A stretch of DNA of 64,000 nt from an uncultured Chloroflexia bacterium (GTDB taxonomy: Bacteria > Chloroflexota > Dehalococcoidia > Dehalococcoidales > UBA2162). Positions 796 to 64,000 of the stretch are shown piece after piece. Under the pieces are notes generated by a model. The model searched no databases. It worked only from the letters and a program-made list of their open reading frames with translations, and had not been told where the DNA came from. The stretch's first letter is position 1. Each line of letters starts with the position of its first letter. The position numbers were made by a program, and so were the translations under genes. The stretch lies in the NCBI GenBank assembly GCA_963745605.1, contig CAVUYC010000027.1:9190-73189 (forward strand), written 5' to 3'.

Positions 796-817
796 AATTG
801 TCCTGACTGAGCGGAGT

Positions 818-14406: not shown

Positions 14407-14512
14407 AATTCCATAGTTCTAAAGCAGGGATCGGATTTCTTAATAACACCTTAACAATCTCAGCCTATTGTATAGATAAGCTTTCTTTTCAATCCTAATC
14501 CTCCCCCCTTTG

Positions 14513-14550
14513 AAACAGAGCCCGGGAGCGCAGCCCGGGCTCTGTTTTTT
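14513..14550. terminator. Bidirectional rho-independent terminator between convergent genes
   Basis: AAACAGAGCCCGGG-AGCGCAG-CCCGGGCTCTGTTT followed by TTT. A-rich on the other side. Confidence 0.75.
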
Positions 14551-14617
14551 GTCATGTGAGTGCGCTGGTTTGAAGTGGGTCCACTTTGAAGAGGTCGAGA
14601 ACCCGCAAGGGCGTCGT

Positions 14618-22653: not shown

Positions 22654-23225
22654 TAGCGCAACTCCTCCACAGTAGTCTCCTCGATAGCCCTCTTCATAGC
22701 ATTCACATTCCTGTCGGCGAGGCGGCCAAACCTATCACGTAGAGGCTCGATGAGGGATTCCGGCTTAACCGCCCCGGTTGCCTTCAGCAAGGCACCGAGC
22801 ATTGTCGTGTTGACGATCGGCACGCCAAGCGTCTCGCGTGCGATCTTGCTGGCATCGACAACAGCGACACGCCAGTGTCCTTTAAACGCGCCTTTAATGT
22901 CCGAGACCGGCCGGCTGGAGTTGACAATGACTGTTCCACCATCGCGAAGGCCGTCAGTCACATTGACCACTCTCAACACGGTAGCATCCAGAACGACAAC
23001 TACATGGGGCTCAGTGATACCGGCGCGAACGTGGATCGGCTTTTCAGGACTAATACGATCATAGGCAACTACAGGGGCGCCACGGCGTTCGGGACCGAAA
23101 GAGGGGAAAGCTTGAGCATACTTGCCTTCGCTTATGGCAGCCTTTGCCAGAAGCTCCGCCGAAGTCACCGCACCCTGCCCGCCTCTTCCGTGCCAACGGA
23201 TCTCGATCAGGTCACTCTTCTCCAA
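22653..23225 (-). CDS. porG: Pyruvate/2-oxoacid:ferredoxin oxidoreductase, gamma subunit
   Basis: 190 aa. IRWHGRGGQGAVTSAELLAKAA...FPSFGPERRGAPV. Confidence 0.9.
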   Translation of the reverse strand: MEKSDLIEIRWHGRGGQGAVTSAELLAKAAISEGKYAQAFPSFGPERRGAPVVAYDRISPEKPIHVRAGITEPHVVVVLDATVLRVVNVTDGLRDGGTVIVNSSRPVSDIKGAFKGHWRVAVVDASKIARETLGVPIVNTTMLGALLKATGAVKPESLIEPLRDRFGRLADRNVNAMKRAIEETTVEELR

Positions 23226-26523: not shown

Positions 26524-26556
26524 GGAGGCGGGTCAAATGACCCGCCTCCTTCATTT
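26524..26556 (+). terminator. Rho-independent terminator of the cytochrome gene
   Basis: GGAGGCGGGTC-AAAT-GACCCGCCTCC (11-bp stem) followed by TTCATTT. Confidence 0.65.
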
Positions 26557-26719
26557 CCCCAACCCCTCGGCCCGAAGCGGCCCAGCATGTTGCTTGTCAC
26601 CTGTGCGAAAGGCCAGTACCAAACTAGACCGTCGACTCCCTGCTTCTCTACGTTCGCCTGATGTGAGCAGCCCTGAGACAGCGTTTAATTGGGGCAATGT
26701 ATGCATGGGAGGCCGCAAT

Positions 26720-31621: not shown

Positions 31622-32024
31622 ACGCTTTTCGTCTCAATCACGTCCGAAGTCATCAGAAGCAACCCGGGGCAGACACGAGGTCAGTGTTCGGTCACCGGGG
31701 CTGGCCACATTATAAGGCTTGCGTCAGGGAAGTCCAACCACAGCTCGCAGCCAGCTAATTGGACCCCATATCGGTGCCAATTCGGCAGTTGCCCCGTCCA
31801 GATTCCCGGGGTCCAGCGGTTTCATTCGAAAGGGTGGCTGCCGGGAATCAGTCAGATCGAGTTTGACTCACGGAAATGACGAGCTTTATAATTATCACAG
31901 TAGACAGAATATCGGATAAATACGCTCATATTTATCCTGTTTCACAGATAGCCTCGGTATTCAGCAGACCATTGATCCAAGCCAGGGTTGAGATTCCGAT
32001 CACTCTAGAGGAGGTAGGTTGACT

Positions 32025-47619: not shown

Positions 47620-49333
47620 ATGGTTGATAAAAAGCAACTACTTACGATACTTGATCCTAGAGGCCAACCCAGCGGCATTTTCGGAATTGCACTGTCGCCG
47701 GAAAACGACATGATGGACTTGTTGGACCCGATGGGCCAGCCGGAGACTACGTTGCAGCTCAAGCATATGGCTGAGCGGCTGCCTACTCTCGACGGCAAAA
47801 CTGTCTATCTGGTAGAGACTGGCTTCGTCGGGGCCAGGGAATTCATGGAAGAGGTACAGGGCTGGTTTACCCGTAACAGGCCGAAGATCAAGACTGTATT
47901 CCGAAGCAAAGGAAATAATACCTTCGCCAATGACCCTGAACTATGGCAGGAGATTAAGAAGAACGGTGACGCCGCAATATTCGGCGTTGGATCATGAGAC
48001 GGGTGTTCGGCGAGTCTCGCCGATTTTGCTCGCAACATGGAGGACTCCGGTATCCCAACGGCTCCTGTTGCCACTGCTCACTTCGCTAACTACATGGCGA
48101 GGGATAGCCAGATACACGGTGTGCCTTTGCGTTTTAGTTTTCCACCCCACCCCACCGCCTGGGTGTCAGCGGGAAACCCACCGGCAGTATGTAGAGGGCG
48201 ACGATCCCGTATCCGGCCAGCCGTTGATGCAGGAGTTGATAGACGCCCTGACCAATCCACTGACGGAGGAGGAAAAACACCCTGTAGCGGTGAAGAGGTC
48301 CCGGAGGCCGCGGCTGTTGACGCCGGACACTGAGGATAATCTGAGACGATTGTTCGTCAAGAATGGTTGGACCGACGGGTTACCGATCATCTTGCCTACA
48401 GAAGAGCGTGTGGCTGAAATGCTTACCGGGACTGACCATGATCCTCAAGAAGTTATGGGGCATATGTCGGTCACGCCGCATGAGGAAAAGCTGGAATATA
48501 CGGTAGAGAAAGTAGCCGTTAACGCGGTCATGGCAGGTGCCCGTCCGGAACACCTTCCGGTGATACTGGCTTTGGCAGCCACGCAGCGGGCACTAATCCC
48601 TAGTTCGACTGGTTCATGGGCTCACATGATTGTTGTTAATGGTCCCATTCGGAATCAGATAGGCATGAACTGTGGCAGCAGTGCTCTGAGCCCGTTTAAC
48701 CTGGCTAACTCGGCTATAGGCAGGACCGGAACGCTCATGAGCATCAATTTTGGTGATATCAATTTTTCTGAGAACTTCACAGGAGGGGCGGGCAACAACT
48801 TCAACTACAACAACCTTTGCTGCGGTGAAAACCAGGAGCGGTCTCCATGGGAACCATTCCATGTGCAAAAAGGATTCAAAGCTGCTGACAGTACGATCAG
48901 TCTCTTTAGAGGCTGGAGCATGCAGGGCTTTAGCGTTGGGCCGGCGAAACGTATGGCAGAGCTTATGGGCAGGATGGGATTCCCAGTCACTTTTATTCTC
49001 GACCCGCTGGTAGCCAAGAACCTGAAGAAGGACGGCTTTGAAACCAAGCAGCAGTTGGGTGAATTCCTGGTCAAAGAAGCAAAAACTAACAGCCCAGCAG
49101 GACGTCCCATGGATGCTTCCGGCATCAACTTCATTGTCGTGGGCGGAGAATGGAACCCGATTTTTATGACGGCCGACTTTGTCTATCTGCAGACCGAACC
49201 CATCGATAAATGGATACCAAAGACAGGCATCAAAACAGATCTGACCTACCGGATGCCAGCCCAGGCCATCTGCAGCGAAGGGATCTGCGGTCTGGATTTG
49301 AATATACCGGATGACGTCGAGGTGAAAAAGTAG
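47620..49333 (+). pseudogene. GrdB-like Sec-module protein, paralog 2: in-frame TGA (47995-47997) plus one frame disruption at GGG 48171-48173 as sequenced
   Basis: GGAGGG RBS before the ATG at 47620. ...DAAIFGVGS-U-DGCSASLADFARNMEDSGIPTAPV...FSFPPHPTAWVS, then (skipping one G) AETHRQYVEGDDPVSGQPLMQELIDALTNPL... This is colinear with the intact paralog 3. Confidence 0.6.
48007..48023 (+). other. Candidate SECIS minihelix of paralog 2
   Basis: U-CGGCG-[AGUCU]-CGCCG-A starting at the 13th nt counted from the U of UGA. The loop contains GUC. Confidence 0.45.
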
Positions 49334-50268
49334 TGGAAAATGTTGCCGGGAAGACGGCTTTTGTCACAGGCGGTGCAAGCGGGATTGGATTGGGAATTGC
49401 CAAGGTGTTCGCCGCTAACGGAATGAAGGTGGTCATCGCCGAATCGCGCCAGAATGCAATTGATGATGCCATGGGCTATTTCAAGCCTAAGGGATTACCT
49501 GTTCACGCTATCAAGCTCGACGTCACTGACCGCCAGGCTTACGCCCGGGCCGCTGACGAAGCTGAAAAAGTGTTCGGCAAGATTCACGTTCTTGTCAACA
49601 ACGCAGGCGTTGGCACCGGTGGCCCACTGCAGACATGCACCTTTAAGGACTGGGACTATGCCATGGGCGTCAACGTGGGTGGAGTCATCAATGGAGTTGT
49701 GATTGTCCTGCCTCGCATCTTGAAACATGGAGAGGGTGGGCACATCGTATCCACTTCTTCAACCGCAGGGATCTTCGCCGTTGGCGGGAGTGGGATATAT
49801 ACCACCACTAAGTTCGCAGTGGCCGGGATGATGGAAGCGCTGGCTACGGACTTGCAGGGTACAGGAGTTGGAGCCTCGGTGCTCTTCCCTGGCCCGGTCA
49901 CGACCAACCTCGGGGTATCGACTCAAGCGAATCGCCCCGAGCATTTGAAGAACGCCGAGCCGCCACCAACCGCGCAGAGTGGTCAACGGCCCGGTTTAAG
50001 AGGAGACGTCTCCACTTTCATGGACCCTGTCGAAATGGGCGAACGCGTCCTGAGAGGAATTAGGCGTAACGACCTCTTCATCAACACCCACCCTGAATTC
50101 AAGGCTGGATACGCCATCAGAAATGAGGCGATTCTGAAGTCAGTCCCGGACGAGCCTGAGAATCAAAAACGCCACGAGACACTTAAGCTGTACGGAACAC
50201 TGCTTTACAACCCGATCTACGAAAAGCAGACAACACCCGGTTTGCTCCAAAGGACAACCAAGGAGTGA
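49333..50268 (+). CDS. Short-chain dehydrogenase/reductase (SDR) family oxidoreductase
   Basis: TGGASGIGLGIA (TGxxxGxG), NNAG, and S...YxxxK (YTTTK). Confidence 0.85.
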   Translation: MENVAGKTAFVTGGASGIGLGIAKVFAANGMKVVIAESRQNAIDDAMGYFKPKGLPVHAIKLDVTDRQAYARAADEAEKVFGKIHVLVNNAGVGTGGPLQTCTFKDWDYAMGVNVGGVINGVVIVLPRILKHGEGGHIVSTSSTAGIFAVGGSGIYTTTKFAVAGMMEALATDLQGTGVGASVLFPGPVTTNLGVSTQANRPEHLKNAEPPPTAQSGQRPGLRGDVSTFMDPVEMGERVLRGIRRNDLFINTHPEFKAGYAIRNEAILKSVPDEPENQKRHETLKLYGTLLYNPIYEKQTTPGLLQRTTKE

Positions 50269-50329: not shown

Positions 50330-51292
50330 TTGAGAGACTTCAAGGGGAAGATTGCCTTCATAACTGGCGGAGGCTCAGGGGCCGGTCTGGGGCAGGCAAA
50401 ACTGTTCTCTGAGGCCGGTTGCAGAGTGGTCATTGCCGACGTACGTCAAGACCACCTGGATGAGGCTAAAGCTTATTTCCGCGAGAGAAAGGCAGAGGTC
50501 CACGCCATCAAGCTCGATATTACGGACCGCAAGGCCTATGCCGCTGCCGCTGATGAGGTGGAGAAGGTATTCGGCAGTCCGCCTCAACTTCTCTTCAACA
50601 CGGCGGGCGTGAATACCTTTGGGCCAGCCGAAGCATCGACTTTCGAAGACTTCGACTGGGTCATGGGCGTCTGTCTCGGCGGCGTAGTAAACGGGATGGT
50701 GACTTTCGTTCCCAGGATGATCAAAGCCGGGAAAGGCGGTCATATCGCCACGGTTTCCTCCTGGGGTGGCTTTATGGGTTTTGCGAACGACGCCCCTTAC
50801 GCCGCGGCAAAGGCTGCCGTGAATAACCTCATGGAGAGCTACTATCTCGCCCTCAAACCCTACGGAATAGGTGTCTCGGTCCTCTGTCCGACGAACATAA
50901 ATTCGAACATAGGCGAAGCAATATACACAAGGCCCAGACAACTTGAAAACACGGGGTACAAGGCCGACGAACAAACGGTCAATTTCTTGAGGTCGATTCA
51001 CGCCCAGGGCATGGACCCGGTGGAGCTCGCGGGCTGGCTTAAGCGAGGGATCGAGAACGATCAGCTTTATGTCCTTCCCTTCGCCAACGCCGACCAGATG
51101 TTGAAGGACAACTTCCAGAGAGTTCTCGACTTTTCCACCCCCGAAGGCAGCCGACGCCAGGACGAACTAACAAAGAAAAGAGCGGAACAGCGAGCGCGCG
51201 GTAATGATCCCTATGCCACGACGGATTCAGGATGGGGCAAAGCAAGGTCGGATTTGACATGGGTCGACCCGGCAGCACGGGCAAAGGGGTAG
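50330..51292 (+). CDS. Short-chain dehydrogenase/reductase (SDR) family oxidoreductase
   Basis: TGGGSGAGLGQA, NTAG, YAAAK. AAGGAG RBS before the TTG start. Confidence 0.85.
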   Translation: MRDFKGKIAFITGGGSGAGLGQAKLFSEAGCRVVIADVRQDHLDEAKAYFRERKAEVHAIKLDITDRKAYAAAADEVEKVFGSPPQLLFNTAGVNTFGPAEASTFEDFDWVMGVCLGGVVNGMVTFVPRMIKAGKGGHIATVSSWGGFMGFANDAPYAAAKAAVNNLMESYYLALKPYGIGVSVLCPTNINSNIGEAIYTRPRQLENTGYKADEQTVNFLRSIHAQGMDPVELAGWLKRGIENDQLYVLPFANADQMLKDNFQRVLDFSTPEGSRRQDELTKKRAEQRARGNDPYATTDSGWGKARSDLTWVDPAARAKG

Positions 51293-51315: not shown

Positions 51316-53061
51316 GTGGCAATCACCTTGATGGATGACGTAGTTAATCCTCAGCCTCGGACATACGCTGAGAACAAGGGGACTTTTGCTTCCTCAGCCA
51401 TAGCGGTGGAGTCTCTGGCACCTCGCCTGGACACATTGGCAGGGAAGACCGTCTATCTGGTGGATATCGGCTACGGCGGCAGCTACAAATTCATGCAAGC
51501 CGTCGAGCGTTGGTTCAACAAGAATATGCCCTCGGTGACGACAGTACGCAAACGCAAGGCCGGAAGCGCGTTTCGCGATGATTCTCAGGAACTCTGGGAG
51601 GAGATCAAGGCAAAGGGCCACGCGGCCGTTATCGGAGTGGGTGGGTGAATAGGCTGTGTAACAGCGGTCGCTGATTGCAGTATCACTCTCGAGAAAAAAT
51701 ACGGAATCCCGACGGCTCCGTTCACCACCGGCGCCTTCATCTCGGTCGTGCGCGACGACCGGAGGGCTGGGTATATGCCTTTCCTTTTCACCCCCCATCC
51801 TGTGATAGGAATGTCCGACGCACAACTCGATGGATATGTCGTCGGAAACAATCCGGACACTGGCAGACCTGTGATCGAGGACTTGATTGATAACCTCACC
51901 AAACCAGTGGACCCGACGAAACTCAAGTTTCAGGCTGCTCGTGTTGATAGCAACGGAGCCGGAGGATTCCTGAAGGCAGACACAGAAGAGAATATTCAGC
52001 AACTCTTCTACGACAGGGGATGGACGGATGGATTGCCGATCGTCCTCCCCACCGAACAGCGCGTCAAGAAGATGCTCGCCGCAACTTGCGGTCAACCGGA
52101 CGAAGTAGTCGGCGAGATGATGAGGTTCAATATTCGCGGAACAGTCCAGTACACCGTTGCCGATGTGGCGGCCATCGCGGTAATGGCTGGAGCCAAACCG
52201 GAGTACTTCCCAGTCATCCTGGCCACTGCCGCAAGCAAACTGGACCCGATTCAGTCGTCATCCTCCAACTGGTCGGCGATGCTCCTCGTGAACGGCCCCA
52301 TCCGCAATGAAATAGGGATGAACTCTGGGATTGGAGCCCTGTCCCCTATCAACATGGCCAACTCGGTAATCGGGCGAGCCTGGTCACTGATGTCCATCTG
52401 CTGGCTGGACATGCGCCCGAGGGTAAACATGTGGTCATCTCTGGGAAGCAGTCTCAATTACAACAACAACTGCTGTGCCGAGAACGAGGAGGCTAGCGTC
52501 TGGGAACCTTTTCATGTTCAGAAAGGTTTTCGCAAGGACGAGAGCGTAGTGAGCATTTTCAGGGGCTGGGTGTTTGCCAACAGCGCCGGGACTGCCTCCA
52601 GGCGAACGATCGGCGAAGAAATGTGCCTCGAGATGAGCACTATTCCTCCGACCAACGCTAATGCCACCTTCGTCGTTGACCCTGCTATTGCCAGGATGCT
52701 GAAAGAGAAGGACGGGTTTGCCACTAAGCAAGATTTCAGCCGCTGGCTCTCTCAGAACATCAAGATGCCGGCTGGCAGATACTGGGGATATGACCACGTC
52801 GACTGGCTGGTCGCGCCGCAAGCCATCCAGGGAGTGGAGCCGTACTCTACCTTCATGAAAGCCAGGGCTGATGAGCTGATCGCACCATTCCATGATCCCA
52901 ACAAGATCAACATTGTGGTAGTCGGCGGAGACACCAACCCGCTTTGGAAATACTCGGAATTCGGGTATATGCGCAGCGAGTCAGTTGATAGGTGGAGGGC
53001 TGCCAGGTCAGGAGAGGAATGCGCTGACGGCACCTGTGGAATCCCCGACCCGGAAGAATAA
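51316..53061 (+). CDS. GrdB-like Sec-module protein, paralog 3 (intact; selenocysteine at TGA 51646-51648)
   Basis: ORFs 51316..51648 and 51748..53061 are one frame with no other stop: ...HAAVIGVGG-U-IGCVTAVADCSITLEKKYGIPTAPFTTGAFISVVRDDRRAGYMPFLFTPHPVIGMS... GGAGGT RBS before the GTG start. Confidence 0.7.
51658..51678 (+). other. Candidate SECIS minihelix of paralog 3
   Basis: GUAACAGC-[GGUC]-GCUG(A)UUGC starting at the 13th nt from the U of UGA. The GGUC apical loop and single bulge resemble my recollection of the E. coli fdhF minihelix. Confidence 0.5.
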
Positions 53062-53112
53062 ACCAGCCGAACAGTCATCCGGGCCGGTGCGCCCACCGCC
53101 AGCCGTTTTCTC

Positions 53113-53167
53113 CCCTTGGTGAGTCTGAGGACGTTTTGTTGTGGGGCGTCCTCAGACTCACCAAGGG
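53113..53167. terminator. Perfect 21-bp inverted repeat between convergent operons (putative bidirectional terminator)
   Basis: CCCTTGGTGAGTCTGAGGACG-13 nt-CGTCCTCAGACTCACCAAGGG. A competing helix TGGGGCGTCC/GGACGCCCCA spans 53142-53174. Confidence 0.5.
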
Positions 53168-53322
53168 ACGCCCCATTTGGTTAGACTCCGTTCTGCGAAG
53201 TCTCTGTCACGAGAAAGCAGGGAACAGGCGCCGGAGACACCATGCCACATCCCGGCGTAGGCGATGCGAATCAGGCAGGATTTGCGGAGACACAAAGGTC
53301 GGCGGGAATGAGAACGAAGCGA

Positions 53323-54129
53323 TTACCGGTCTTGGCGATCCAGAATCGCCGGATTGAACGCATTTGAGGTTGTTCTTCCTATTGCTGCAAAGCGCGGAGG
53401 GCAGACCTCAAAACAGGTCCCGCACTTGATGCACTTGCTCTGATCGATCCAGTGCTTCTGCCCCTTGCCGCCGACAACCGCCTCGGCCGGACATCTCCTC
53501 AAACAGATCATGCAAGCCCTGCATTTGTCCTGATCCACCTGATAGGAAGCCACCGATTCGAACAGGCTGGCTATCTCCTGGTCGGTGTACAGCGCGGCGT
53601 AGTCTTCGATTTTAGCTGGACGCGCCGCCAGCTTGTCCTTCTTCACAATCTTGATATAGGGAACAAGACTCGTGACTGTGTCGAGTTTCGCCTTGATATC
53701 GCTCTCGTCCAGACCCTCGCCGGCTCCGAGGGGTCCGAGCTCCTTCACCTGCCTGACGAAATCCGTGACTGTTTCAGCGAACAGAATGCCGTCTCCCGAA
53801 GACATGAACTCTATCCTGAGGCGGAGCGGATTAAGGCCGACGTACGCCATTATTCTCTTGCAGAGGTTGGCCTTGTTTAGGGCGCTGTAGTTGCCATGGG
53901 TTGTATAGTTGCACTCATCCAGTCTGCAGCCGACGATTAGTAAGCCATCGGCCCCGTCTGAGAAAGCGCGGAGGACGTGGCGCAGGTCAATTCTCCCGGT
54001 ACACATGAACCGGAGAAGTCTGATGTCAGTCGGGTATTGCAGCCTGGAAACTCCAGCGAGGTCGGCAGCGCCGTACCCTCACCAGTGGCAGACGAACCCG
54101 AGAATTTTGGGCTTAAACTCGATTGGCAT
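53323..54129 (-). CDS. mvhD: MvhD-like domain (selenocysteine at TGA 54079-54081) fused to a 2x[4Fe-4S] ferredoxin domain; BamF-like
   Basis: Own translation from ATG at 54129 (AGGAAGCGAGG RBS): MPIEFKPKILGFVCHW-U-GYGAADLAGVSRLQYPTDIRLLRFMCTGRID..., in frame with ORF 53323..54006. C-terminal CRACMICLRRCP and CIKCGTCFEVCP. Confidence 0.8.
54044..54056 (-). other. Weak SECIS candidate for the MvhD-like gene
   Basis: CUGGA-GUU-UCCAG, 22 nt after UGA. Short stem, so low confidence. Confidence 0.25.
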
Positions 54130-54162
54130 CCTCGCTTCCTTGAATTTCTTAGGGAACTAAGA

Positions 54163-57100
54163 TCACCGTGGCGACGCGAGGGCAGCATCGATTTCGCTCA
54201 ACAGCTGCTCGTCGGTAAAGTGCCTGGACATTATTGCCCCAGTGGGGCAATTTGAGGCACATAGACCATCGCCTTTACACAGCACCGGGTTTATGACCGC
54301 CTTGTTGCCCTGAGCGGTCGACTTGAGCTCAATTGCTCCGTAGGCACAACTTTTGACACAGGCTCCGCACCCCATACACTTCTTCTCAACCAAGTCACAC
54401 ACCGAACCTGACGCTGTAACCGTGTCATGAGACAACAAAGTGAGCACCCGCCCCGCCGCCCCGAATGCCTGATTGACCGTTTCAGTGATATGTTTGGGAT
54501 AGTGGGCCATGCCGCAAAGGAAAACCCCTTCGGCGGCAAAATCGACGGGCCGTAACTTCACATGAGCTTCTTTGAAGAAACCATCGGGTCCGAGGGAGAT
54601 CTTGAAAAGCTGGGCAACATCCTCGCTTCCGGCCGCCGGAACTACTGCGGCCGCCAGGGCGACAAAGTCAGCATCCAGAGCAAGCCTTTTCCCCAGAATC
54701 TGGTCGGTTACCGTTACCCTGAGTCTTCCGTTCTCCAGGGCCTCCACCACTGGTGCATCCTCGGGTTCGTAGCGGATGAAACTGACCTCTTTCTCCGCCG
54801 CCAACCTGTAGTGGTCCTCTTTGAAACCGTAGGTCCGCATGTCACGGAAGAGAATGTAGATGTCCGTGGAGGGGTTCCTCTGCTTCAGTGCCAGAGCGTT
54901 CTTGACCGAATGACTGCAGCACACACGGCTGCAGTAGTCTCGGTCCTTGTTCCTGCACCCCACACACTGAACCATGACGATGCTTCGAGCATCTGCCAGG
55001 CCCTCGTCTCTGCTGAAGATCTTTTCCTCGAGCTCCAGATTGTTCAAAACCCTATCATTCCGGCCGTACAGGTATTCGGTCGGAGAGTAGACCTGGGCGC
55101 CGGTGGCGATGACCGTCGCACCATGGCTGATTTGTTTCACGCCCCGCGTAGACTCAATGGTTGTCACGAAATTGCCCACATAGCCTGTAGCTGACGAGAT
55201 AACAGACCCTGTGTACACGTGGACCGAAGGATGCTCAAGCACCTTTTTGACGAGGTCGCGCAGATATTGCTGGACGTCCATGCCTTCCAGCGTCGACGTC
55301 AGTCTTCTTGCCACGCCTCCCAGGTCGGGCTCTCGCTCAATAAGGTGGACCTCGTGTCCTTGTGCCGCAATAGAGAGTGCGCAAGTCATGCCAGCAATCC
55401 CCCCGCCCACTACCAGCGCCGCCTTGTTCACCGGCAACTCGAATTCGCCAAGTGGCTCCAGATGGCCTGCCCGCGCCACCGACATTCGAATGATGTCTTT
55501 TGCTTTACGTGTAGAGTCTTCGCTCTCCCGGGAATGTACCCATGAGTTGTGTTCGCGGATGTTTGCCATCTCGAGATAGTACTGATTGATTCCCGCTTCC
55601 CGCACCGTGTCGCGAAATAGCGCCTCCAGCGTCCGCGGCGAACAAGCGGCGACAACTACGCGGTTCAGCCCCTTTTCCTTAATCATGTCCGTGATTTCCT
55701 GGGCGCAATTCGTGGCACAGGAAAAGAGCTGCTCCTGGGCATACGCGACATTCGGCAGGGTGAGCGCGTAATCGACAGTTGACGGCACGTCCACTACTCT
55801 TCCGATGTTAGCCCCGCAGTGGCAGACAAAGACGCCGATCCTCGGCCTCTCTTTGGATACATCCTTTTCCGGAGGGTATTCTCGATCTACACTCAGCTTA
55901 CCCCTGCGGAAATTCAGCAACTCGCCCGTTTGTGAAGCTGCGCCGCTGGCCGAGAATACCGATTCCGGTATGTCGACCGGACCCTGAAAGGCGCCGCTGA
56001 CAAACACTCCCGGCCTGGAGGTTCCGATGGGATTGTCGCCGTCGGTCTTGCAGAATCCGTGCTCGTTAATCTCGATTCCGAACTTCTGAGCCAGATCGGC
56101 AAATCCCGAGGGAGGGTTTAGACCCACCGAGAGCACCACCATCTCAAACTCTTCCTCGCGCACCCCGTCTTCGGGCGTAGAATAGCGAAGAGTGACGTTC
56201 CTGCTTCCGGGTACTTCTCGCCCCAGCGAAACGTAGCTTCTGACAAACCTCACCCCGGCCAGGTCCCTGGCCCGTTCGTAGAAGCGTTCGAAATCTTTGC
56301 CGTGGGCACGAATGTCGTTGTGGAATATCGTGCACTCCACACCGGGGTCGTGGTCTTTGGAGAGGATCACCTGCTTCTGGGCATAGGCGCAACAGACCGA
56401 TGAGCAGTAGCTATTGCCGCCGTCGATTATCTGCCTCGATCCGACGCACTGTATCCAGGCGATCTTGCGTGGGGGTCTCCCATCCGAGGGACGTCTAATC
56501 TCGCCTTCGTACGGTCCCGTGGCACACAGTATCCGCTCGAAATCCATACTCGTTACCACATTGGGCAACGTGCCATATCCGAAGTCCCCTCTTGCCTTCG
56601 GGTCGAACGGCTCGATCCCAGGCGCGAGAATAATAGCCCCGACGTTGAGCTCGATGTGCTGCGCCGTCTGAGTTAAGTCGATGGCTTTGTTCTTGCACAC
56701 CCGCTCGCAAAGCCGGCATTTCTTCTCCTTGAGATATAGACAGCTTTCGTCGATATAGGCGACCAGCGGAATCGCCTGGGCATAGTAGATGTGTACGGCC
56801 TTGTTGCCCGAGATTGACTGGTTGAACTTGTCAGGATAGGAAACTGGGCAATATTCGACGCACGTCGTGCAACCGTGGCACTTGTCTTCCCTGATATACC
56901 TCGGCTTTTTGACGAGGCTGACCTTGAAATCTCCGGCCTCGCCCTTCACCGCTTCAACATCGGTATACGAGAAGACCTCGATGTTCGTCTGCCGGCCGAC
57001 CTCGACCAGTTTCGGTGAGAGTATTCACATCGAACAATCGTTGGTAGGAAAGGTCTTGTCAAGCTGCGCCATGTGCCCGCCGATGGCGGGGAGCTTCTCG

Positions 57101-57255
57101 ACAAGGTAAACCTTGAAACCAGCCTTAGCCAGATCCAGCGAGGCTTCGATGCCGCTAATGCCTCCGCCCACAACCATAACATCCCCGAAGCGGACGTCAT
57201 CGAGGCTCTTGTAGAGTCTGCGCACTCGTTCATCTACTGAAGGTTCAAAAGTCAT
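54163..57255 (-). CDS. hdrA: Double HdrA-like Fe-S flavoprotein (selenocysteine at TGA 57025-57027); BamE-like
   Basis: ORF 57025..57309 ends ...[21 protein letters not shown] and continues in frame as [35 protein letters not shown], joining ORF 54163..56949. Two GxGxxG folds ([26 protein letters not shown]) and several CxxCxxCxxxC motifs. Confidence 0.85.
56992..57009 (-). other. Candidate SECIS hairpin of the HdrA-like gene
   Basis: CUGGUC-[GAGGUC]-GGCCGG (6 bp including 2 G-U pairs), 15 nt after UGA. The loop contains GGUC. Confidence 0.4.
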
Positions 57256-57335
57256 GGAATGCCTCGGAATGGAATGCGTCGTCGTTCGAATGATGAGATA
57301 CGCGTGCATCTATCCATTTCAGAAACCGGGGTTGC

Positions 57336-57911
57336 TTACCGGCCATCCGCGTTCTTCGCATTCTGGCTTGCCAGCCTTGCCACGGTGTCTATTACTCGCT
57401 CGAGTCCGTACTTGTTAATCAGCGCCTCCACACCCTGCTCCACCTCTACGGGCTTGACCTGGTCGTCAACTTCTTCTTCTCGTTCTTCATATATGAGGGC
57501 GTCATTGAGGCACCACTGGACACACATCGGCTTCTCCAGCGGGGGATCGCTTTCGCACATATCGCAGGTCAAGGAAAGCTCTGAGTCGGGCTCTTTGAAA
57601 AGGTCCCGTGACGGGCAGGAGGCACGGCAGAAGTCACACTCCTGGTACTCTTTGCCGCCTTCGGCGTACTTCAGCCGGCCAGTGCACTCCGCGGCAGTGT
57701 ATTCGCCGGCGAAGACTGGCAGGTAAATGTCCTTAACGGGCTGGTGAATTAGCCGGACGCGCGAGCGCGCCGGGTTGTTGATGCCGTACTTGGGCACGGC
57801 GTGAAAAGCGGAGCAGATCACTTCACAAGCCCGGCAGCCATTACACTTGTCCAGATCAACTTTGATGGTCTTGACGATCTTCTTCTTTTTCTCGTCACCA
57901 GCCACAGTCAA
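57336..57911 (-). CDS. Multi-[4Fe-4S] ferredoxin-type subunit partnering the AOR (BamC-like)
   Basis: 191 aa. CNGCRACEVICS, CDFCRASCP, CDMCESD...CVQWC motifs. Immediately downstream of the AOR gene. Confidence 0.8.
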   Translation of the reverse strand: MTVAGDEKKKKIVKTIKVDLDKCNGCRACEVICSAFHAVPKYGINNPARSRVRLIHQPVKDIYLPVFAGEYTAAECTGRLKYAEGGKEYQECDFCRASCPSRDLFKEPDSELSLTCDMCESDPPLEKPMCVQWCLNDALIYEEREEEVDDQVKPVEVEQGVEALINKYGLERVIDTVARLASQNAKNADGR

Positions 57912-58054
57912 CTCCCGTCTGGGAACCCATCTGAAACAGACTCGAAAATCGAGTGTCTAAACCATGAAGAGCACGCAGTGCGAATGCGGGCCGGTAGTCA
58001 TGGCATTTCGCCAATTCGAAATTGCTTCGCATTTCGGATTTCGTGCTTGCGGTT

Positions 58055-60013
58055 TTAGTCCCGGAGGATGTCCCTCTTCACGAAGTCGTCAGCCACGTAA
58101 TCCAGGCCGAGGCCGTGCAAAGACTCTTTCGTCGGAATTCCCTCGCCGTTCCACCCCTTGTACCTATAATAGGCGTCTAATAGCTGGGACTCCAACTCGG
58201 GATACCGCCGGCGCCAATGGTCTTCAGGCGGCTTTTCGTCCGCCCGCCTCATCCCACGCCGAATGTTCACCGACCTCACCAGTTGCCGGTTCCGCCTTGC
58301 GACCTGCGTCAGTCCAGCTTCGTCAATATCCATCCCTGTCGCCGCCGAAATCAGCGACGGGTAATTATGTATGTGATAGGGAGGCTTGAGGGGGAACGAC
58401 GACAGCCCGGCACATACCCCGAGCGAATCGTCAATGTAGTGCATTCGCTCCATCCAATCGACCGCTTCGCAACACATCTGGACTGTCGGGTAGTAGGGGT
58501 TGGAGAACTCTCCCCTCGGTTCCCAATCCAGAAAATACTGCTTAAACTTGTCGTCAGGCACCTGGATCCAGTCTTTGACGAACGCTTCTCTCTCTTCACG
58601 GGTAGGAAAAGGCTCCTGGGGGAACTGACCTTCTATCTGAGTGATATTAATCTTCTCGCCCGTGGAATACATCAGGAAATAGATGGGATTGAGCATGCCC
58701 AGCTTGAGAGGCAACTGCTCGTGCTTCTTGATGTTGTTATGGGCAAATTCTTCGGCGCCCTTGCCGATCTGCTTCGCCGCCCAGTAGGTGCCGTTGGCCA
58801 GAATATCTCCGATTCCATCCCGATGCACAATCTTGTCAAGGAGCCAGTAGAAACGTCCCTCGCTATCGGACGGCATTCCAGGCATATCTGAGGACGTCAG
58901 GATGCCGGCCTCGTATAGCTCCAGCGCAAAAGCCATTACCTGCGGCGTCGAGAATCCATCGACCCCGTACTCGGTGGCCAGCTGGGCGATCTTGAAGCCG
59001 AAATCGAGGTCCGAATAGGCCGCCATGGTGTAGGTCAGCTTTGAGTAGCACTTCATCATGTAGGTTGAGATGCCTGGTACCGAGATTGCTGCCCCGCATT
59101 TCATGGGGCAGTTATAGCAACTGAGCAAACGCGTGCGCACATTCTCCTGAGTCTCACGCCATTTCTGCTCGATCTCCGTCGTCCAGAAGTCCTTCCGGCG
59201 GGTTCGCGAATTGCCCCACATGAAGCTGGTGGTGTGCCACTTCTCGTCGAAGAGCTTCATCTCCTGGGGCGAACCCAGGCCGGCCAGAATGGGCATGACA
59301 CCCGGGATCGGGTGTTGCTCTCTCGCCCTTATGTTCTCAAGGACTTCGTTGCAGAGCTTGATGAACTCGGCAGGCCGTGCCACGCTGACATCCATGGTGC
59401 CCCTGACAGCGATGGCCTTCACACCCTTGTCCCCCATCACCGCCCCAATTCCGAGCCGGGAGGCGCTTGATCTTCCCTGTTCTATGGAGGCCATGTAGAC
59501 CCGGTTCTCTCCAGCCAGGCCAATAGACGCTACCTGGGCATACGGCTGGTCAAGTTCCTCGCGGATAAGTTCAGATGTCTCGCCGGCGCCTTTGCCCTTC
59601 AAATGAGAGGCATCACGTATTTCAACCTTGCCATTGTGTATCCAAATATATACAAGCTTAGGGGACTTGCCCCGAAGGACGATCTTGTCAAAGCCGGCGA
59701 ATTTGAGTTCTGGGGCGAAGAACCCTCCCATCATGGAGTAGGCCATGAGCCGGGTCTGGGGAGAGTAGGTGGTGACGATGGTGCGATTCGCACCGACCGC
59801 CGGCGTGCCGCAGAGAAGCCCGGTGCCGAAGATCAGTATGTTATCCGGCGAGAAGGGGTCAGTCGCAGCAGGCACCGTATCCCATAGCAGCTTGGCATTG
59901 GTACCCAACCCGCCTAGGTATAGGCCGGTCTGGGAGAGGTCGGTTACTATCCTTTCGATATTGCCGCTGGAAAGGTCGATTTCGAGGTTAAATCCTGTTT
60001 CAGCGTATCTCAT
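58055..60013 (-). CDS. Tungsten-type aldehyde:ferredoxin oxidoreductase family enzyme, BamB-like (class II benzoyl-CoA reductase catalytic subunit type)
   Basis: I prefer the start at the ATG at 60013, giving MRYAETGFNLEIDLSSGNIERI...YLGGLGTNAKLLWD (653 aa). AOR-family core. Context of Fe-S, HdrA(Sec) and MvhD(Sec) genes. Confidence 0.85.
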   Translation of the reverse strand: MRYAETGFNLEIDLSSGNIERIVTDLSQTGLYLGGLGTNAKLLWDTVPAATDPFSPDNILIFGTGLLCGTPAVGANRTIVTTYSPQTRLMAYSMMGGFFAPELKFAGFDKIVLRGKSPKLVYIWIHNGKVEIRDASHLKGKGAGETSELIREELDQPYAQVASIGLAGENRVYMASIEQGRSSASRLGIGAVMGDKGVKAIAVRGTMDVSVARPAEFIKLCNEVLENIRAREQHPIPGVMPILAGLGSPQEMKLFDEKWHTTSFMWGNSRTRRKDFWTTEIEQKWRETQENVRTRLLSCYNCPMKCGAAISVPGISTYMMKCYSKLTYTMAAYSDLDFGFKIAQLATEYGVDGFSTPQVMAFALELYEAGILTSSDMPGMPSDSEGRFYWLLDKIVHRDGIGDILANGTYWAAKQIGKGAEEFAHNNIKKHEQLPLKLGMLNPIYFLMYSTGEKINITQIEGQFPQEPFPTREEREAFVKDWIQVPDDKFKQYFLDWEPRGEFSNPYYPTVQMCCEAVDWMERMHYIDDSLGVCAGLSSFPLKPPYHIHNYPSLISAATGMDIDEAGLTQVARRNRQLVRSVNIRRGMRRADEKPPEDHWRRRYPELESQLLDAYYRYKGWNGEGIPTKESLHGLGLDYVADDFVKRDILRD

Positions 60014-60467
60014 ATCACGCGGAAAACACTCGGAATGCCACGATGATGAATTGGGTATTGCACTGTTTCTACGACAAGGCTGATCGTGACATATCAGCGT
60101 TCTAAAGTCAATGGAGGGTATCTCTCTGAGTGCATTGTTATTACATTCCGATGTTCGGATAGGATATTCGTCTGGATTCCTGACCACAACGCTTGCCGCA
60201 CGGCAGTTCGCTCAGATTACGAGGGCCAGTGGTCTGCAGCGAGGGGGGAGTTGATACCCGCGGACTTGTTAGTTCACGGTTGAGTCGACGATTGGCCGTA
60301 ATAAGCGCCCCTTCCCAAACAGCTCTCTTCGGCTATTGACCTCCAGTTGGCTTGGCAAGCATGGCAAACCGAAGACGATGGCCGCACGACGTGGATCGAA
60401 GGGATGGGACGAGGGTCTGCGAGCAATCCGCTCAGGACCTCATATTGTCGTTGGTTTCACAGACTAT

Positions 60468-60722
60468 CTACTGTCTAGACTCGACCAGCATGGAAGTGAA
60501 CACTTCGCAAGAATTGCACAACTTCCTCTTTTCGGACCATGTCTTGCGTCGTTTTCCCTGGCAATATGTGCCGTTGACTTCCCAGCAGGCAAGCCCGGCC
60601 TCATACTGAAAAGCCGCACAATTCTCTCTCCATTCCGTAGGGCACTTGCGAACTTCCCAACACACTCCCACATTCCAGTCATTCGGATCAAGGTAGCAGG
60701 CTCGCCCTTTTTCCGTACTCAT
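60468..60722 (-). CDS. Small cysteine-rich protein with two CWE motifs (two-CW-domain-like)
   Basis: From ATG at 60722: MSTEKGRACYLDPNDWNVGVCWEVRKCPTEWRENCAAFQYEAGLACWEVNGTYCQGK...CNSCEVF. Confidence 0.5.
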   Translation of the reverse strand: MSTEKGRACYLDPNDWNVGVCWEVRKCPTEWRENCAAFQYEAGLACWEVNGTYCQGKRRKTWSEKRKLCNSCEVFTSMLVESRQ

Positions 60723-61112
60723 CTCCAAGCACCCCCCGTAATGTTCGTTCGCGATGCGAAGCCGTGAACATGTCAAACCGGCTGTCTTACTTAGGTGCCA
60801 TGGTTTCGCAACGGCACGCCAATGCCTATTGTATGTGAATATAGAATAGCATGGTCATGTTAGCCGTGATTCTATCACTGCGGTTTTGGCGCAGTCAAAG
60901 CTCACGGCTTCTCCGTTCGCCGTGCATTCATGCTCACTGGAGGTACGTGGCTGCAGCCACACCACGGAGACCATGTTAGCCTTCCCTTTGCTGTTCCAAT
61001 TGAGCGGCGGAGAGATGCTTAGTCTTTCAGTTTGTTACGCCGTATTGTTCAGGTGGCCGTCTTGGACAAATCCCGAGAGTATTCGAATGCCCTCGGATGA
61101 AGCGTCCGTCCA

Positions 61113-63230
61113 TCATATCGTTAGAGCCAGCCTGTAAGGCCCATGAATGTCGGCAATGTACTGGACCTGGACAGACTTGGCGTTCCCTACGAGGTACAGC
61201 CCTTGGACTTTCCCCGCGAGCTCGCGGAAGAGATCGGCGTTGGACTCGTAGTTTGCGGTGATGATGGTATCGGCTTCGACGAATTCTTCCTTGCCGCCGC
61301 AGGTGACTGAAAGTCCGCTCTCAGTGATCTCGTTGTACCGGCATTCCTTCAGTACTTTCACCCCCAGCCTCCGCAATTCCTCAGTGGTGGTGTAGTGATG
61401 GTAGAAGACGTCTGCGATACGGTCCTGGGATGAAACGACGGTCACCTGTCTGCCCACTTGAGTAATCGACATTTTAGCTACATCATCCGGGGAGTGCTGG
61501 GGACTCCATCGAAGAATGTGCATGGCCACGTCCTCTCGAGTGCAGGCCTCCCTCGCCACGAATTGAGCGGTGAAGCTTCCAAGTGCTGCGTAGTCGTGGT
61601 CGGCATCGGCGTCGATGACCACGATTTTGCTTCCGACATCCACCCTTTCAAGCAGGACATCCTCGGCGAAGACGACGTGAGGATGCTTGTCGATCCCCCT
61701 TATGCTGGGGAGGACGGGGCGGGCACCGGTGGCTATGACCACCGCGTCCGGCGCTTCTTTTTCAATTGACCGTTGAGTCACTTCTTGCCCGCACTGGACT
61801 TCCACCCCGAGCTTTTTGAGCTGGTTGGTCAGGTATATCCTCAAGAGATCCATATCGCGGCGGAACGGCGCAAGGCTCTGGACGTAGAGCATGCGGCCCA
61901 GCTGCTTTTCTTTCTCATAGAGCTTGACGCGGTGACCTCGCCGCGACAGAGCTAGAGCCGCCTCCATGCCTGAGAGTCCTCCGCCAACCACAATAACCCT
62001 CTTTGCCTTTTCAACCTTTGTCATCTTCAGGGAGTCTGATAGCTCCTTCGGTTTGTAGAAAGGCGATTCGGGGTTGACAGCGCAGGTGAAGCTGCCCATG
62101 CACCAGACGCACCCGGTGCAGGGAATGATATCGTCCAGGCGGCCCTCCCTTATTTTGTTCGGCCAGTCCGGATCGGCGATGAGTTGCCGGCAGATGCTGA
62201 CAATGTCACAGTCACCGTTTCTCAGCAGCGAAGATGCCAGCCACGGGTTTTGCACCCGGCAAGCGTTCATTACGGTGACCCCTGCGTAGGGAGCTCTCAG
62301 AGAGACGAGGTAGCTCTTGACGGCACGAGCGTACTGCGAATACGCCCCCGGAGGTACGACCATTTGGAGTTGAGGAACCTGAGTCGAAAACCCGGCCTGC
62401 ACTACATCTATGCAATCGACCCCGGCTTTTGCGTACATCGATGCCATCAGCTTTGAGTACTCGATGTCGTAGCCGCCTTCGATATACTCAGTCCCGCTGA
62501 GGCGTATCATGACCGGGAAGTCTGAACCACAGGCTGCCTTGATCCCCCGGATACATTCGAGCGGGAACCGCAATCTCTCATCGACCCCGTCGGAATAGCC
62601 CGGCACCCCGGGGTTCCTAACCTCGGATGTCAGTATGGCTATCAAGCTTTCTCTGGCCCCGGTCAACTGGACTCCGTCAGCACCCGCTTTCTTAGCCCTC
62701 ACCGCCGCAGCCACGTAATTCTCCACCTCTTCTTTCAGGACATCGGGTGTCATGCCGACATCTTTCCAATCAGGCACGATAAGCTCTGTCTCGCCCTCGC
62801 CGCGGATTCCAGCGACCCTGGCCACCCACGGAGCGTGGGTAGAAAGCTGCGGAATAACTTTGGCGTCATATTTGTGGCATGCCTCTATAAGTGTGCTCCA
62901 CCCCGGGATCGTGTCGTCGCTCCATATCGCCTTGGGCGGCCTTCTTTCGCCAGCTGCCTTCTGTAGGGTGCCTGGCGAATCAGGAGTGACAACCACCTCG
63001 CCAACAACAATCATTCCAGCCCCCCCTCGGGCGATGGCCTCATGAAAGGCGACGTGCGTTGGGTGCATTTGGGGATACACCGTGTCAGGAGGAAGCCTTT
63101 GGATCGGGGCCAGTGCTATGCGATTCTTCAGCAACATTTTTCCGATGCGGACAGGCTGCCACAGCTTGTCTAGCATCTCGTGCTGAAACGGGTGTTCAAC
63201 ATGTTGGCTGTCTGCTGGTACTAGTTTCAC
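61113..63230 (-). CDS. Old-Yellow-Enzyme / 2,4-dienoyl-CoA reductase (FadH)-type FMN + [4Fe-4S] + FAD/NAD(P) oxidoreductase
   Basis: 705 aa. N-terminal OYE TIM barrel (LKNRIALAPI...), CTGCVWCMGSFTC cluster motif, then VIVVGGGLSGMEAALAL and VVIATGARP dinucleotide folds. Confidence 0.85.
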   Translation of the reverse strand: MKLVPADSQHVEHPFQHEMLDKLWQPVRIGKMLLKNRIALAPIQRLPPDTVYPQMHPTHVAFHEAIARGGAGMIVVGEVVVTPDSPGTLQKAAGERRPPKAIWSDDTIPGWSTLIEACHKYDAKVIPQLSTHAPWVARVAGIRGEGETELIVPDWKDVGMTPDVLKEEVENYVAAAVRAKKAGADGVQLTGARESLIAILTSEVRNPGVPGYSDGVDERLRFPLECIRGIKAACGSDFPVMIRLSGTEYIEGGYDIEYSKLMASMYAKAGVDCIDVVQAGFSTQVPQLQMVVPPGAYSQYARAVKSYLVSLRAPYAGVTVMNACRVQNPWLASSLLRNGDCDIVSICRQLIADPDWPNKIREGRLDDIIPCTGCVWCMGSFTCAVNPESPFYKPKELSDSLKMTKVEKAKRVIVVGGGLSGMEAALALSRRGHRVKLYEKEKQLGRMLYVQSLAPFRRDMDLLRIYLTNQLKKLGVEVQCGQEVTQRSIEKEAPDAVVIATGARPVLPSIRGIDKHPHVVFAEDVLLERVDVGSKIVVIDADADHDYAALGSFTAQFVAREACTREDVAMHILRWSPQHSPDDVAKMSITQVGRQVTVVSSQDRIADVFYHHYTTTEELRRLGVKVLKECRYNEITESGLSVTCGGKEEFVEADTIITANYESNADLFRELAGKVQGLYLVGNAKSVQVQYIADIHGPYRLALTI

Positions 63231-63414
63231 TCACGGGCTCCTGATTCAATTGTCAGAAAGAGGAAATGTCCGAGTTGGGCAGAAGGAGGATTGGCCGTGA
63301 CTCACAGTTCAATACACCGGATGATTTCCTGTACTCGAGTGTTTGAAACGGTTCAAGAGGTAGCATAGACCGCGACTGTTCAGCAAAACTGGCGAGCCTT
63401 CCAGGCAAAAGAAT

Positions 63415-63942
63415 CTACAAATCCTTAGGATCAGAGGGAGGAAATGGGTCAGAGAACTCTATTTTGAGTTCCTGCATCGCCCTCTTACGGATATTGACCA
63501 GCAGGTCCCACATCTGTAACTGCTCAGTTTCTGACAGCGAGGACATGACCTTTCTCGTCGACTTCCGCCTTGAAGACTCTCGGTACGCTTCAAGTCCTTT
63601 GTCTGTAAGCTCGACTCGAATCATGTTCCGTCTTCCAAGGTCGTGAGCCCTGCGAATCAGCCCCTTCTCTTCCATCGCCTTCAGTTGAACCGATGTTGTG
63701 TGAGGCTCCCAAAACAACTGCCTGGATATGTTTGCCGGCGTGGCGAGTCTCTTCAGTCTGATGGCGGTGAAGAGCACGATCGCATCATTCATCGTAAGGC
63801 CGAGCTGGCGGAGCTCCTTCTGACGCGCCTTAGCGATGAGATGATCGGTGCGGGCCAGTAGCTGCCACAGTCCGTCACCAAGGGTCATGCGGACTCTGAC
63901 TATTGGTTTCTTCTTGAGGCGATCGGATGCTGCCGTCTGCAT
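63415..63942 (-). CDS. MarR-type winged-helix transcriptional regulator
   Basis: 175 aa. LGLTMNDAIVLFTAIRLKRLATPANISRQLFWEPHTTSVQLKAMEEKGLIRRAHDLGRRN. Confidence 0.75.
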   Translation of the reverse strand: MQTAASDRLKKKPIVRVRMTLGDGLWQLLARTDHLIAKARQKELRQLGLTMNDAIVLFTAIRLKRLATPANISRQLFWEPHTTSVQLKAMEEKGLIRRAHDLGRRNMIRVELTDKGLEAYRESSRRKSTRKVMSSLSETEQLQMWDLLVNIRKRAMQELKIEFSDPFPPSDPKDL

Positions 63943-64000
63943 TTTGAGCCGATTCTAACACCGGTGACCCATAAAGTCTAGGCATGTACCCATGGCTCAG

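Follow-up and report, generated by a model that had tools for sequence, protein, structure and literature searches.

The minus strand of a 64-kb stretch of DNA from a Chloroflexota-type genome (the window) carries, between positions 53323 and 63942, a gene cluster containing homologs of bamB, bamC, bamE and bamF. We conclude that these genes probably specify the core subunits of a W/Se benzoyl-CoA reductase of class II, the ATP-independent kind, with ferredoxin-fed bifurcation at BamE, in a Dehalococcoidia-like member of the Chloroflexota, and that the cluster belongs to a recurrent lineage with no bamD gene between bamC and bamE. The best-studied relative is the Bam[(BC)2DEFGHI]2 complex of Geobacter metallireducens, whose host belongs to the Desulfobacterota. 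In the model for that enzyme the aromatic ring is reduced at about −620 mV by two serial bifurcation modules, with BamGHI as the input and BamE with a BamD-ETF exit, ETF being the electron-transferring flavoprotein (10.64898/2026.04.10.717634). We establish here the gene identities, the conservation of cofactor ligands, and the architectures together with their distribution.

A sequence-only reading of the same stretch had listed seven minus-strand genes, from a marR gene to bamF. All 7/7 are found where it placed them, with one small correction, in that the protein of the aldehyde oxidoreductase (AOR) family has 652 rather than 653 aa. The coordinates are collected in Table 1.

The AOR-family protein groups with BamB

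Compared with all PDB sequences, the AOR-family protein matches BamB of G. metallireducens (4z3w_A) with 1134.9 bits and ∼78% identity, without gaps over residues 1–650. The next PDB match is the AOR of P. furiosus (1aor), at 206 bits. In a tree of 85 sequences the window protein lies within a tight BamB clade of 75–83% identity, together with the G. metallireducens sequence, and apart from both a clade of paralogs at 59% identity and an AOR at 27%. The sequence-only reading had asked for this phylogeny, with a position among the conventional AORs as the alternative outcome; the protein falls inside the BamB clade.

The active-site residues (Geobacter numbering) agree with this placement. Cys322 is the tungsten ligand of BamB and is absent from the aldehyde-oxidizing AORs (PMC12096430). 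It is present in the window BamB and in all 82 members of the clade; an AOR-like paralog (locus L050) has Gly at the same position. Glu251 and His260 have been assigned as proton donors, and His255 and Glu257 as Zn-site residues, in Geobacter BamB (PMC12096430). Glu251, Glu257 and His260 are present in the window BamB and invariant in the clade alignment (82 sequences), and Cys299, Cys302, Cys306 and Cys534 are kept in the window protein. The 59%-identity paralogs have Phe at position 251. Judged by its sequence, the AOR-family protein is a true BamB and not a conventional AOR. Its tungsten content and its benzoyl-CoA/1,5-dienoyl-CoA activity are predicted.

The adjacent polyferredoxin matches the BamC chain of the crystallized BamBC (4z3w_E) with 244 bits and E = 7.5e-72. 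In GTDB genomes the closest relatives of the window BamB come from metagenome-assembled genomes (MAGs) of Dehalococcoidia and Chloroflexia; bamB genes in Dehalococcoidia MAGs have been noted previously (PMC10570749). That benzoyl-CoA reduction is driven by ferredoxin-fed bifurcation is suggested by the very strong homology, not by the local pathway context.

BamE and BamF as selenoproteins

The double HdrA-like protein scores 925 bits against the HdrA2 model and 584–614 bits against HdrA structures, and it is 62–75% identical to the BamE proteins of 80 BamB loci in GTDB genomes. An FAD-binding motif occurs twice, near residues 43 and 630 when counted from the upstream ATG at 57309, and the C-terminus has a Fer4 pair. 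An alignment of 54 sequences has 30 invariant Cys/Sec (selenocysteine) columns, and all 30 are kept in the window BamE. The same is true of K294, the invariant lysine of the motif YCSxVCCxYxQK. In the G. metallireducens BamE, Lys280 has been placed at N5 of the bifurcating FAD (10.64898/2026.04.10.717634); from the offset between the two sequences we infer that K294 is its equivalent. Overall the window BamE is more divergent than its relatives, with 75.7% identity to the consensus compared with 82.6 ± 3.8% for the other sequences.

Both bamE and bamF have an in-frame TGA codon, in the contexts TNDCSM(TGA)ILSPK (i.e. DCSMU) and FVCHW(TGA)GYG respectively. The aligned BamE column holds TGA in 45/54 sequences and Cys in 9/54, and at that of BamF 42 complete sequences have U and eight have C. 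Since the homologs carry TGA/U or Cys at these columns, both TGA codons are, on this comparison, selenocysteine codons. When the 63 nt downstream of each TGA were folded by a simple procedure, no energetic signal stood out against shuffled sequences (z = +0.63, −0.44 and +0.23). The neighbors of bamB are thus homologs of bamC, bamE and bamF with the selenocysteines expected of them, as the sequence-only reading had it. In three loci (L022, L054 and L073) BamF and BamG are fused into a protein of 395 aa, and the selenocysteine positions of both BamE and BamF are occupied by Cys.

A ferredoxin-type BamF in clusters without BamGHI

BamF matches FlpD over residues 9–132 (3e-42) and a Fer4 dicluster over residues 197–246. 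Its C-terminus in the window is a ferredoxin domain with two CxxCxxCxxxC motifs, not a winged helix, and the final ∼148 residues of the protein share 39% identity (E = 5e-26) with the C-terminal domain of BamH. In locus L128 the corresponding identity reaches 60% over 84 aa. In Geobacter the winged helix of BamF docks BamI, and the ferredoxin-like C-terminal domain of BamH (clusters H1/H2) takes electrons from external reduced ferredoxin (10.64898/2026.04.10.717634). When BamG, BamH and BamI were searched against the 64-kb window by tblastn, they gave generic Fe-S matches only, plus the match of the BamH C-terminal domain to BamF. A Pfam survey of the window revealed no NuoE/NuoF-type protein.

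We classified the 80 GTDB loci by tblastn with BamD, BamG, BamH and BamI from the canonical locus L004, whose BamD type was checked by Pfam, and then extracted every BamF. Fifty loci have a complete BamF. BamGHI is absent from 26 of these and present in 24, figures that are not population estimates because the sampled loci are skewed to relatives of the window. Ferredoxin-type BamF proteins (26 complete, plus one cut by a contig end) have 257–287 aa with two CxxCxxCxxxC motifs, and BamGHI lies downstream of none of them. The other 24 are either of ∼253 aa with a winged-helix-like end or 395-aa BamF-BamG fusions. Of these, 20 have BamG, BamH and BamI all adjacent; the remaining four have BamG or BamGH only, the other genes being undetected in a short flank after BamF (570–2944 bp). 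The type of BamF C-terminus and the presence of BamGHI are therefore perfectly correlated, with zero exceptions.

The sequence-only reading had pointed out that BamGHI is missing from this cluster. Given that 26 of 50 related loci also dispense with it, the absence is an ordinary one that appears to be explained by the ferredoxin-type BamF. That reading had also supposed the electron input to be elsewhere or different. It is probably built into BamF, because the end of this protein resembles the ferredoxin-accepting domain of BamH. The simplest reading of the clusters without BamGHI is that the ferredoxin entry port has moved onto BamF. Open reading frames (ORFs) within 4.5 kb downstream of the 26 ferredoxin-type BamF genes were clustered in search of a common replacement module, but no family occurs in more than five loci. 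These families are unannotated; by size alone the candidates are ETF-like pairs, a CoA ligase and a small protein.

Clusters without BamD

The stop of BamC, at 57336, and the start of BamE, at 57255 or 57309, are 25–80 bp apart. This spacing is too small for a gene, so that no bamD lies between bamC and bamE, and a tblastn search of the 64-kb window with two BamD references gave no CCG-type match. The absence of bamD and bamGHI from the cluster, as already claimed from the sequence, thus holds, for bamD by both spacing and search and for bamGHI by search.

The arrangement is rare. Among ∼97 BamC-BamE junctions, BamD lies between the two genes in ∼88 and is missing from nine. Of the GTDB loci that reach beyond BamC, 60/62 have a CCG-domain protein of 383–413 aa between BamC and BamE; only L007 (from a Chloroflexia MAG) and L061 (from a Desulfobacteraceae MAG) have BamC abutting BamE. 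A scan of metagenomes with BamC added four further junctions without BamD (L089, L092, L093 and L094), compared with 27 that have it. The two closest relatives of the window BamE in a collection of 5.8 billion proteins, L128 and L129, both lack BamD. In L128, on a contig of 110 kb, the genes are arranged PaaX-BamB-BamC-BamE-BamF, the last of the ferredoxin type, and the L129 BamB, with 86% identity, is the closest to that of the window that we have seen. Wherever a cluster without BamD has a complete BamF (window, L007 and L128) it is of the ferredoxin type (3/3).

In a tree of BamB relatives with at least 79% identity, the window groups with L086, L093, L128, L129 and L007, and five of these six lack BamD. 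Since L061 is unrelated to the window within the tree, the cluster has lost BamD on more than one occasion. The state without BamD is a rare but recurrent one, found in a mainly Chloroflexota lineage of class II benzoyl-CoA reductases. It is apparently undescribed so far: our literature searches, with most subscription-journal papers outside their scope, turned up no account of such clusters or of the exchanged BamF domain.

Some genomes have two Bam sets, either next to each other or on different contigs. In the L061 genome an E-F-G-H-I set and a B-C-E set without BamD lie side by side (692–7744 and 10001–14794). The Chloroflexota MAG GCA_004297765.1 has L130 (5983–13754) in addition to L017; here a BamB of the 59% paralog type is followed by C-D-E-F with a ferredoxin-type BamF, after thiolase, hydratase and SDR genes.

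Proposed electron flow and alternative explanations

The direction of electron flow, ferredoxin as the donor and bifurcation itself are taken over from the structure and assays of the G. metallireducens enzyme (10.64898/2026.04.10.717634). There the high-potential electron passes from the bifurcating FAD of BamE to cluster E4, then through BamD (clusters D1–D4) to ETF, and the low-potential electron passes through the BamE and BamC clusters to the tungsten site (10.64898/2026.04.10.717634). By analogy, reduced ferredoxin would dock on the C-terminal 2×[4Fe-4S] domain of the window BamF, and the [2Fe-2S]/Sec site of the same protein would relay electrons to the FAD of BamE at which they bifurcate. 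The electron of low potential would then travel along the clusters of BamE and BamC as far as the BamB tungsten cofactor, where benzoyl-CoA or a close analog would be reduced to the 1,5-dienoyl-CoA. The high-potential electron would leave via cluster E4 of BamE, to a BamD encoded elsewhere or to a different acceptor. The sequence-only reading had counted BamD as part of the electron input. It is the high-potential output (10.64898/2026.04.10.717634), so it is the exit of the second electron that is missing, and a cluster without BamD therefore lacks the known outlet for the exergonic branch of the bifurcation.

A number of observations weigh against our reading of the cluster as a ferredoxin-fed benzoyl-CoA reductase of a lineage without BamD. 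The mechanism is drawn by analogy throughout, and the sample of loci on which the BamF comparison was made is skewed as noted above. His255 is replaced by Phe in the window BamB, at a position that varies in 31/82 sequences. The Pfam survey of the 64-kb window detected no dch/had/oah genes, benzoate-CoA ligase or other CoA ligase, ETF, acyl-CoA dehydrogenase or crotonase-family enzyme, and a role in benzoyl-CoA catabolism is therefore unsupported by local context. L086, a close relative of the window, has BamD, and L061 has a canonical E-F-G-H-I immediately upstream of its copy without BamD. Lastly, BamE of the loci without BamD looks unaltered when compared with 51 sequences from loci that contain it. 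It has no specific indel, the shared substitutions number only four and are all conservative, and no segment in 30-residue sliding windows has z below −2.5. This is as expected if BamD still binds, supplied in trans. It is mild evidence that the BamD-binding surface of BamE may still be under constraint, through a BamD encoded elsewhere or through another partner.

This leads to the foremost alternative, that the window encodes part of an ordinary BamBCDEF(GHI) enzyme whose absent subunits lie elsewhere in the genome, with BamD passing the high-potential electron to ETF. We think this a real possibility, albeit one that we would not favor. Strain NaphS2 has BamB-F and BamGHI in separate clusters (PMC2988823), L061 has a canonical E-F-G-H-I set beside its copy without BamD, the surface of BamE shows no sign of alteration or relaxation, and our view covers 64 kb of the genome. 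Against BamGHI acting in trans, the window BamF lacks the winged helix that docks BamI and has a ferredoxin-entry domain instead, an exchange that tracks the absence of BamGHI in 26/26 loci. Against BamD acting in trans, its gene lies between bamC and bamE in ∼88/97 junctions, its coordinated absence across 5/6 members of a single clade points to a stable condition and not to a chance event, and there is no CCG-domain gene within ±10 kb in L007 or L128, nor in the window.

It is also conceivable, though on balance doubtful, that BamB-BamC-BamE-BamF with the ferredoxin-type BamF forms a self-sufficient four-subunit minimal enzyme, with ferredoxin as sole donor and an acceptor other than BamD-ETF, possibly the OYE-type flavoprotein or another local redox protein. 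If so, neither BamGHI nor BamD would be essential for ring reduction beyond the potential of ferredoxin.

A more specific proposal is that BamD has been replaced, the E4 electron being passed to a nearby redox protein whose exergonic reduction drives that of the ring. The acceptor might be the OYE, with an enoyl- or dienoyl-CoA as the compound reduced, or the selenoprotein of the UGSC family encoded beyond the end of the cluster. We consider this improbable. The OYE gene adjoins the cluster and its product has an FAD domain without an NAD(P)H motif, so that it would need a protein donor, and in NaphS2 genes for the OYE-type NCR stand beside BamGHI homologs (PMC2988823). Yet L007, L128, L129 and L093 have no such OYE in their flanks, and in L081–L085 it occurs without Bam genes. 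UGSC genes lie near all three clusters without BamD that have long flanks (window, L007 and L128), but this adjacency may be chance; the family has >5600 relatives and also stands beside MarR-OYE without Bam genes in L082, and in the window the UGSC gene runs towards the cluster, in the opposite orientation.

Very improbable, finally, is that the enzyme is no benzoyl-CoA reductase at all but an aldehyde-oxidizing bifurcating tungsten oxidoreductase or a BamB paralog with another substrate: AOR-family enzymes with bifurcating partners do exist (class IV WORs; PMC13328260), BamB paralogs of unknown specificity are common and the local context has no benzoyl-CoA pathway genes, but the protein is 78% identical to a characterized BamB against 27% for AORs, it has the BamB-specific Cys322 and the Glu251/His260 pair, and it differs at position 251 from the distinct 59% paralog clade with its Phe.

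Comparison with known systems

The window cluster shares with the G. metallireducens Bam complex a BamB of ∼78% identity with its tungsten-ligand Cys and proton donors, a double-HdrA BamE with its cluster cysteines, the DCSxU Sec/Cys pair and the lysine by the bifurcating FAD, a BamF whose MvhD domain has Sec in CxWU, and the gene order B-C-…-E-F. It differs in having neither BamD (HdrD-like, the output to ETF) nor BamGHI (the confurcating input from NADH and ferredoxin), in its 2×[4Fe-4S] domain where the Geobacter BamF has the winged helix that docks BamI, in Phe for His255 of BamB, and in its host.

BamBCDEF clusters without adjacent BamGHI (NPH_7171–7176 of NaphS2 and the 26 loci, e.g. L014 and L002) resemble the window in this respect, and loci of the L014/L002 type also share the long ferredoxin-fused BamF. 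They keep BamD between BamC and BamE, whereas the window and eight other loci do not. The HdrABC-MvhAGD complexes of methanogens (5ODC, 8RVU) have a counterpart of BamE in HdrA, and an MvhD adaptor with Cys/Sec by its [2Fe-2S] cluster, as in the window. In the window, however, the HdrA unit is duplicated and fused, no HdrBC-type partner is present in the cluster, and the low-potential branch would feed a tungsten enzyme, not ferredoxin.

BamGHI is missing from about half of the related clusters that we sampled, and its absence goes hand in hand with a precise exchange of domains in BamF. If the complexes are active as encoded, ATP-independent dearomatization would need fewer parts than the model enzyme has, and the high-potential electron must have another acceptor. 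Heterologous expression, too, would be easier with a target of four subunits. Metagenome surveys score a 'complete' class II benzoyl-CoA reductase by the presence of bamB-I, and would therefore misjudge these organisms.

A separate MarR-OYE pair

The sequence-only reading had joined the marR and OYE genes to the Bam set. The pair recurs without Bam genes, and the closest clusters without BamD have no OYE, so that MarR-OYE is, as far as gene neighborhoods tell, an independent conserved gene pair separate from the Bam unit. In L082 a 73%-identical MarR lies directly upstream of an 80%-identical OYE, and no Bam genes follow. In L081 the OYE precedes a conventional AOR (27% to BamB), an Fe-S subunit and a ThiS-like gene, and in L083 it is followed by genes for a UbiD-type carboxylase, a molybdopterin oxidoreductase and a CoA ligase. 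Around the OYE of L084 and L085 there is nothing related. The OYE was considered as a conserved Bam neighbor and rejected, since it is near BamB in none of the other loci, the flanks of L007, L128, L129 and L093 included. The neighborhoods in L083 and L081 are contexts of an aromatic-acid type.

The regulator matches HTH_27 at 23.8 bits (cutoff 22.2), with the MarR_2 and MarR models below their cutoffs. The OYE matches Oxidored_FMN (5e-38, residues 22–366) and Pyr_redox_2 (4e-17), and its best PDB matches are NCR (6qkg, 193 bits) and FadH (1ps9, 171 bits). Its subfamily, which appears to be confined to the Chloroflexota, comprises ∼47 sequence clusters with 57% identity or more, beyond which the next matches drop to 34%; the named members are all Chloroflexota/Dehalococcoidales. 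The three-domain layout expected of an OYE/FadH-type enzyme is present, with an FMN TIM barrel, a four-Cys linker and a GxGxxG FAD motif at 411–420, as in NCR (6QKG) and E. coli FadH (1PS9). That part of the earlier assignment stands. An identity as standard FadH or NCR does not, as the catalytic Tyr and the NAD(P)H motif are lost. The Tyr motif SAGYLISQFLSP is replaced by GARESLIAILTS; the residue aligned with Y197 of NCR, the invariant proton-donating Tyr of the G-Y-L-I motif, is Ser in GARESLIA throughout the ≥57% subfamily. The residue at the position of His26 (FadH/DCR) or Val38 (NCR) is Gln, and the Cys motif has the shorter form CxxCxxCx5C. A second GxGxxG is no longer present, VVIDADADHD standing in place of V(I/L)GGGAVG, and there is an insertion in the second α/β domain. 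NCR likewise has no recognizable NAD(P)H site, but similarity to both known enzymes is low, and the Ser for Tyr and the shortened Cys motif set the window protein apart. Its sequence thus marks it as a member of a non-canonical subfamily, neither a standard FadH nor NCR. The OYE probably needs a protein electron donor, because the FAD domain is present and the Gly-rich NAD(P)H motif is absent. That this donor is the Bam module has a low probability.

Layout of the locus and neighboring genes

Promoter-like sites precede both the marR and the two-CW gene, suggesting two transcription units, marR-OYE and twoCW-bamBCEF. These are sigma-70-like sites at 63980–63952 and 60898–60869 respectively, each by consensus match only. 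The two-CW gene may thus be co-transcribed with bamBCEF. Its product matches NF045718 two_CW_domain at 39.7 bits (cutoff 35) and no Pfam model, and has its first Met at 60722. It was rejected as a conserved Bam neighbor, being beside BamB in none of the other loci examined. The bamC gene starts 143 nt after bamB. The cluster had been said to end at a convergent terminator, and a perfect inverted repeat is indeed found between the convergent stop codons; it is likely to be a bidirectional terminator that closes the cluster. An Rfam scan of 52900–64000 at E ≤ 1 found no family, including in the 454-nt gap upstream of bamB. The gap could house a regulatory leader.

Table 1. Genes and other features of the Bam locus and its MarR-OYE neighbors (window coordinates)
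Feature	Position	Strand	Details
marR, winged-helix/MarR-like regulator	63415–63942	−	175 aa; HTH_27 above cutoff
OYE/FadH-type Fe-S flavoprotein	61113–63230	−	705 aa; Oxidored_FMN + Pyr_redox_2
Two-CW domain protein, small, Cys/Trp-rich	60468–60776	−	102 aa from TTG start; NF045718
Non-coding gap upstream of bamB, 454 nt	60014–60467	−	Read directly from the sequence
BamB, AOR-family subunit (predicted tungsten-bis-metallopterin)	58055–60013	−	652 aa; AFOR_N + AFOR_C; N-terminus MRYAETGFNLEIDL
BamC, three-[4Fe-4S] polyferredoxin	57336–57911	−	191 aa; Fer4-type; match to 4z3w_E
BamE, fused double HdrA selenoprotein	54163–57255	−	1030 aa; alternative ATG 57309; TGA 57025–57027
BamF, MvhD/FlpD + C-terminal 2×[4Fe-4S]	53323–54129	−	268 aa; TGA 54079–54081
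Inverted repeat, perfect 21 bp, 13-nt loop	53113–53133 / 53147–53167		Between convergent stop codons 53061 and 53323; likely terminator

On the plus strand, beyond the repeat, lies a single reading frame at 51316–53061 with an in-frame TGA at 51646–51648 (…VIGVGG-U-IGCV…). It encodes a UGSC-family (seleno)protein domain fused to a C-terminal domain of ∼430 aa, and a UGSC paralog is found at 47930–49333 (+). Named relatives of the neighboring UGSC protein are from Dehalococcoidales/Chloroflexota. The C-terminal domain has no match among Pfam, NCBIfam or PDB sequences, and an AlphaFold2 model of it (pLDDT 75) gave no credible Foldseek match (best TM 0.18). It has >5600 relatives, mostly in Dehalococcoidales, and nearly all of these have been gene-called as 'hypothetical proteins' of 420–476 aa that start just past the TGA. 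The UGSC family also turns up in other loci: in L007 it follows BamF, in L128 it is 7 kb away from BamF, and in L082 it stands next to MarR-OYE. Between the two UGSC paralogs of the window are tandem SDR-family dehydrogenases (49333–50268 and 50330–51292, +), convergent to the Bam cluster; in NCBIfam they come closest to uncharacterized SDR models, all below cutoff.

Some 30 kb from the Bam cluster, a four-gene 2-oxoacid:ferredoxin oxidoreductase (20249–23225, −; POR gamma, delta-type ferredoxin, alpha and beta) is a possible source of reduced ferredoxin. The window also encodes an MtrC/MtrF-like multiheme cytochrome of 936 aa (23661–26471, +), which one would not expect in a Dehalococcoidia-like genome; next comes a radical SAM protein (26537–27961, +). 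Two overlapping frames (32019–32783 and 32776–33972, +) encode the FAD_binding_2 N-terminal and Succ_DH_flav_C C-terminal parts of what appears to be a split fumarate-reductase/AprA-like flavoprotein, the result of a frameshift or a sequencing error. This is followed by a GltD/NfnB-like Fe-S flavoprotein at 33969–35777 (+).

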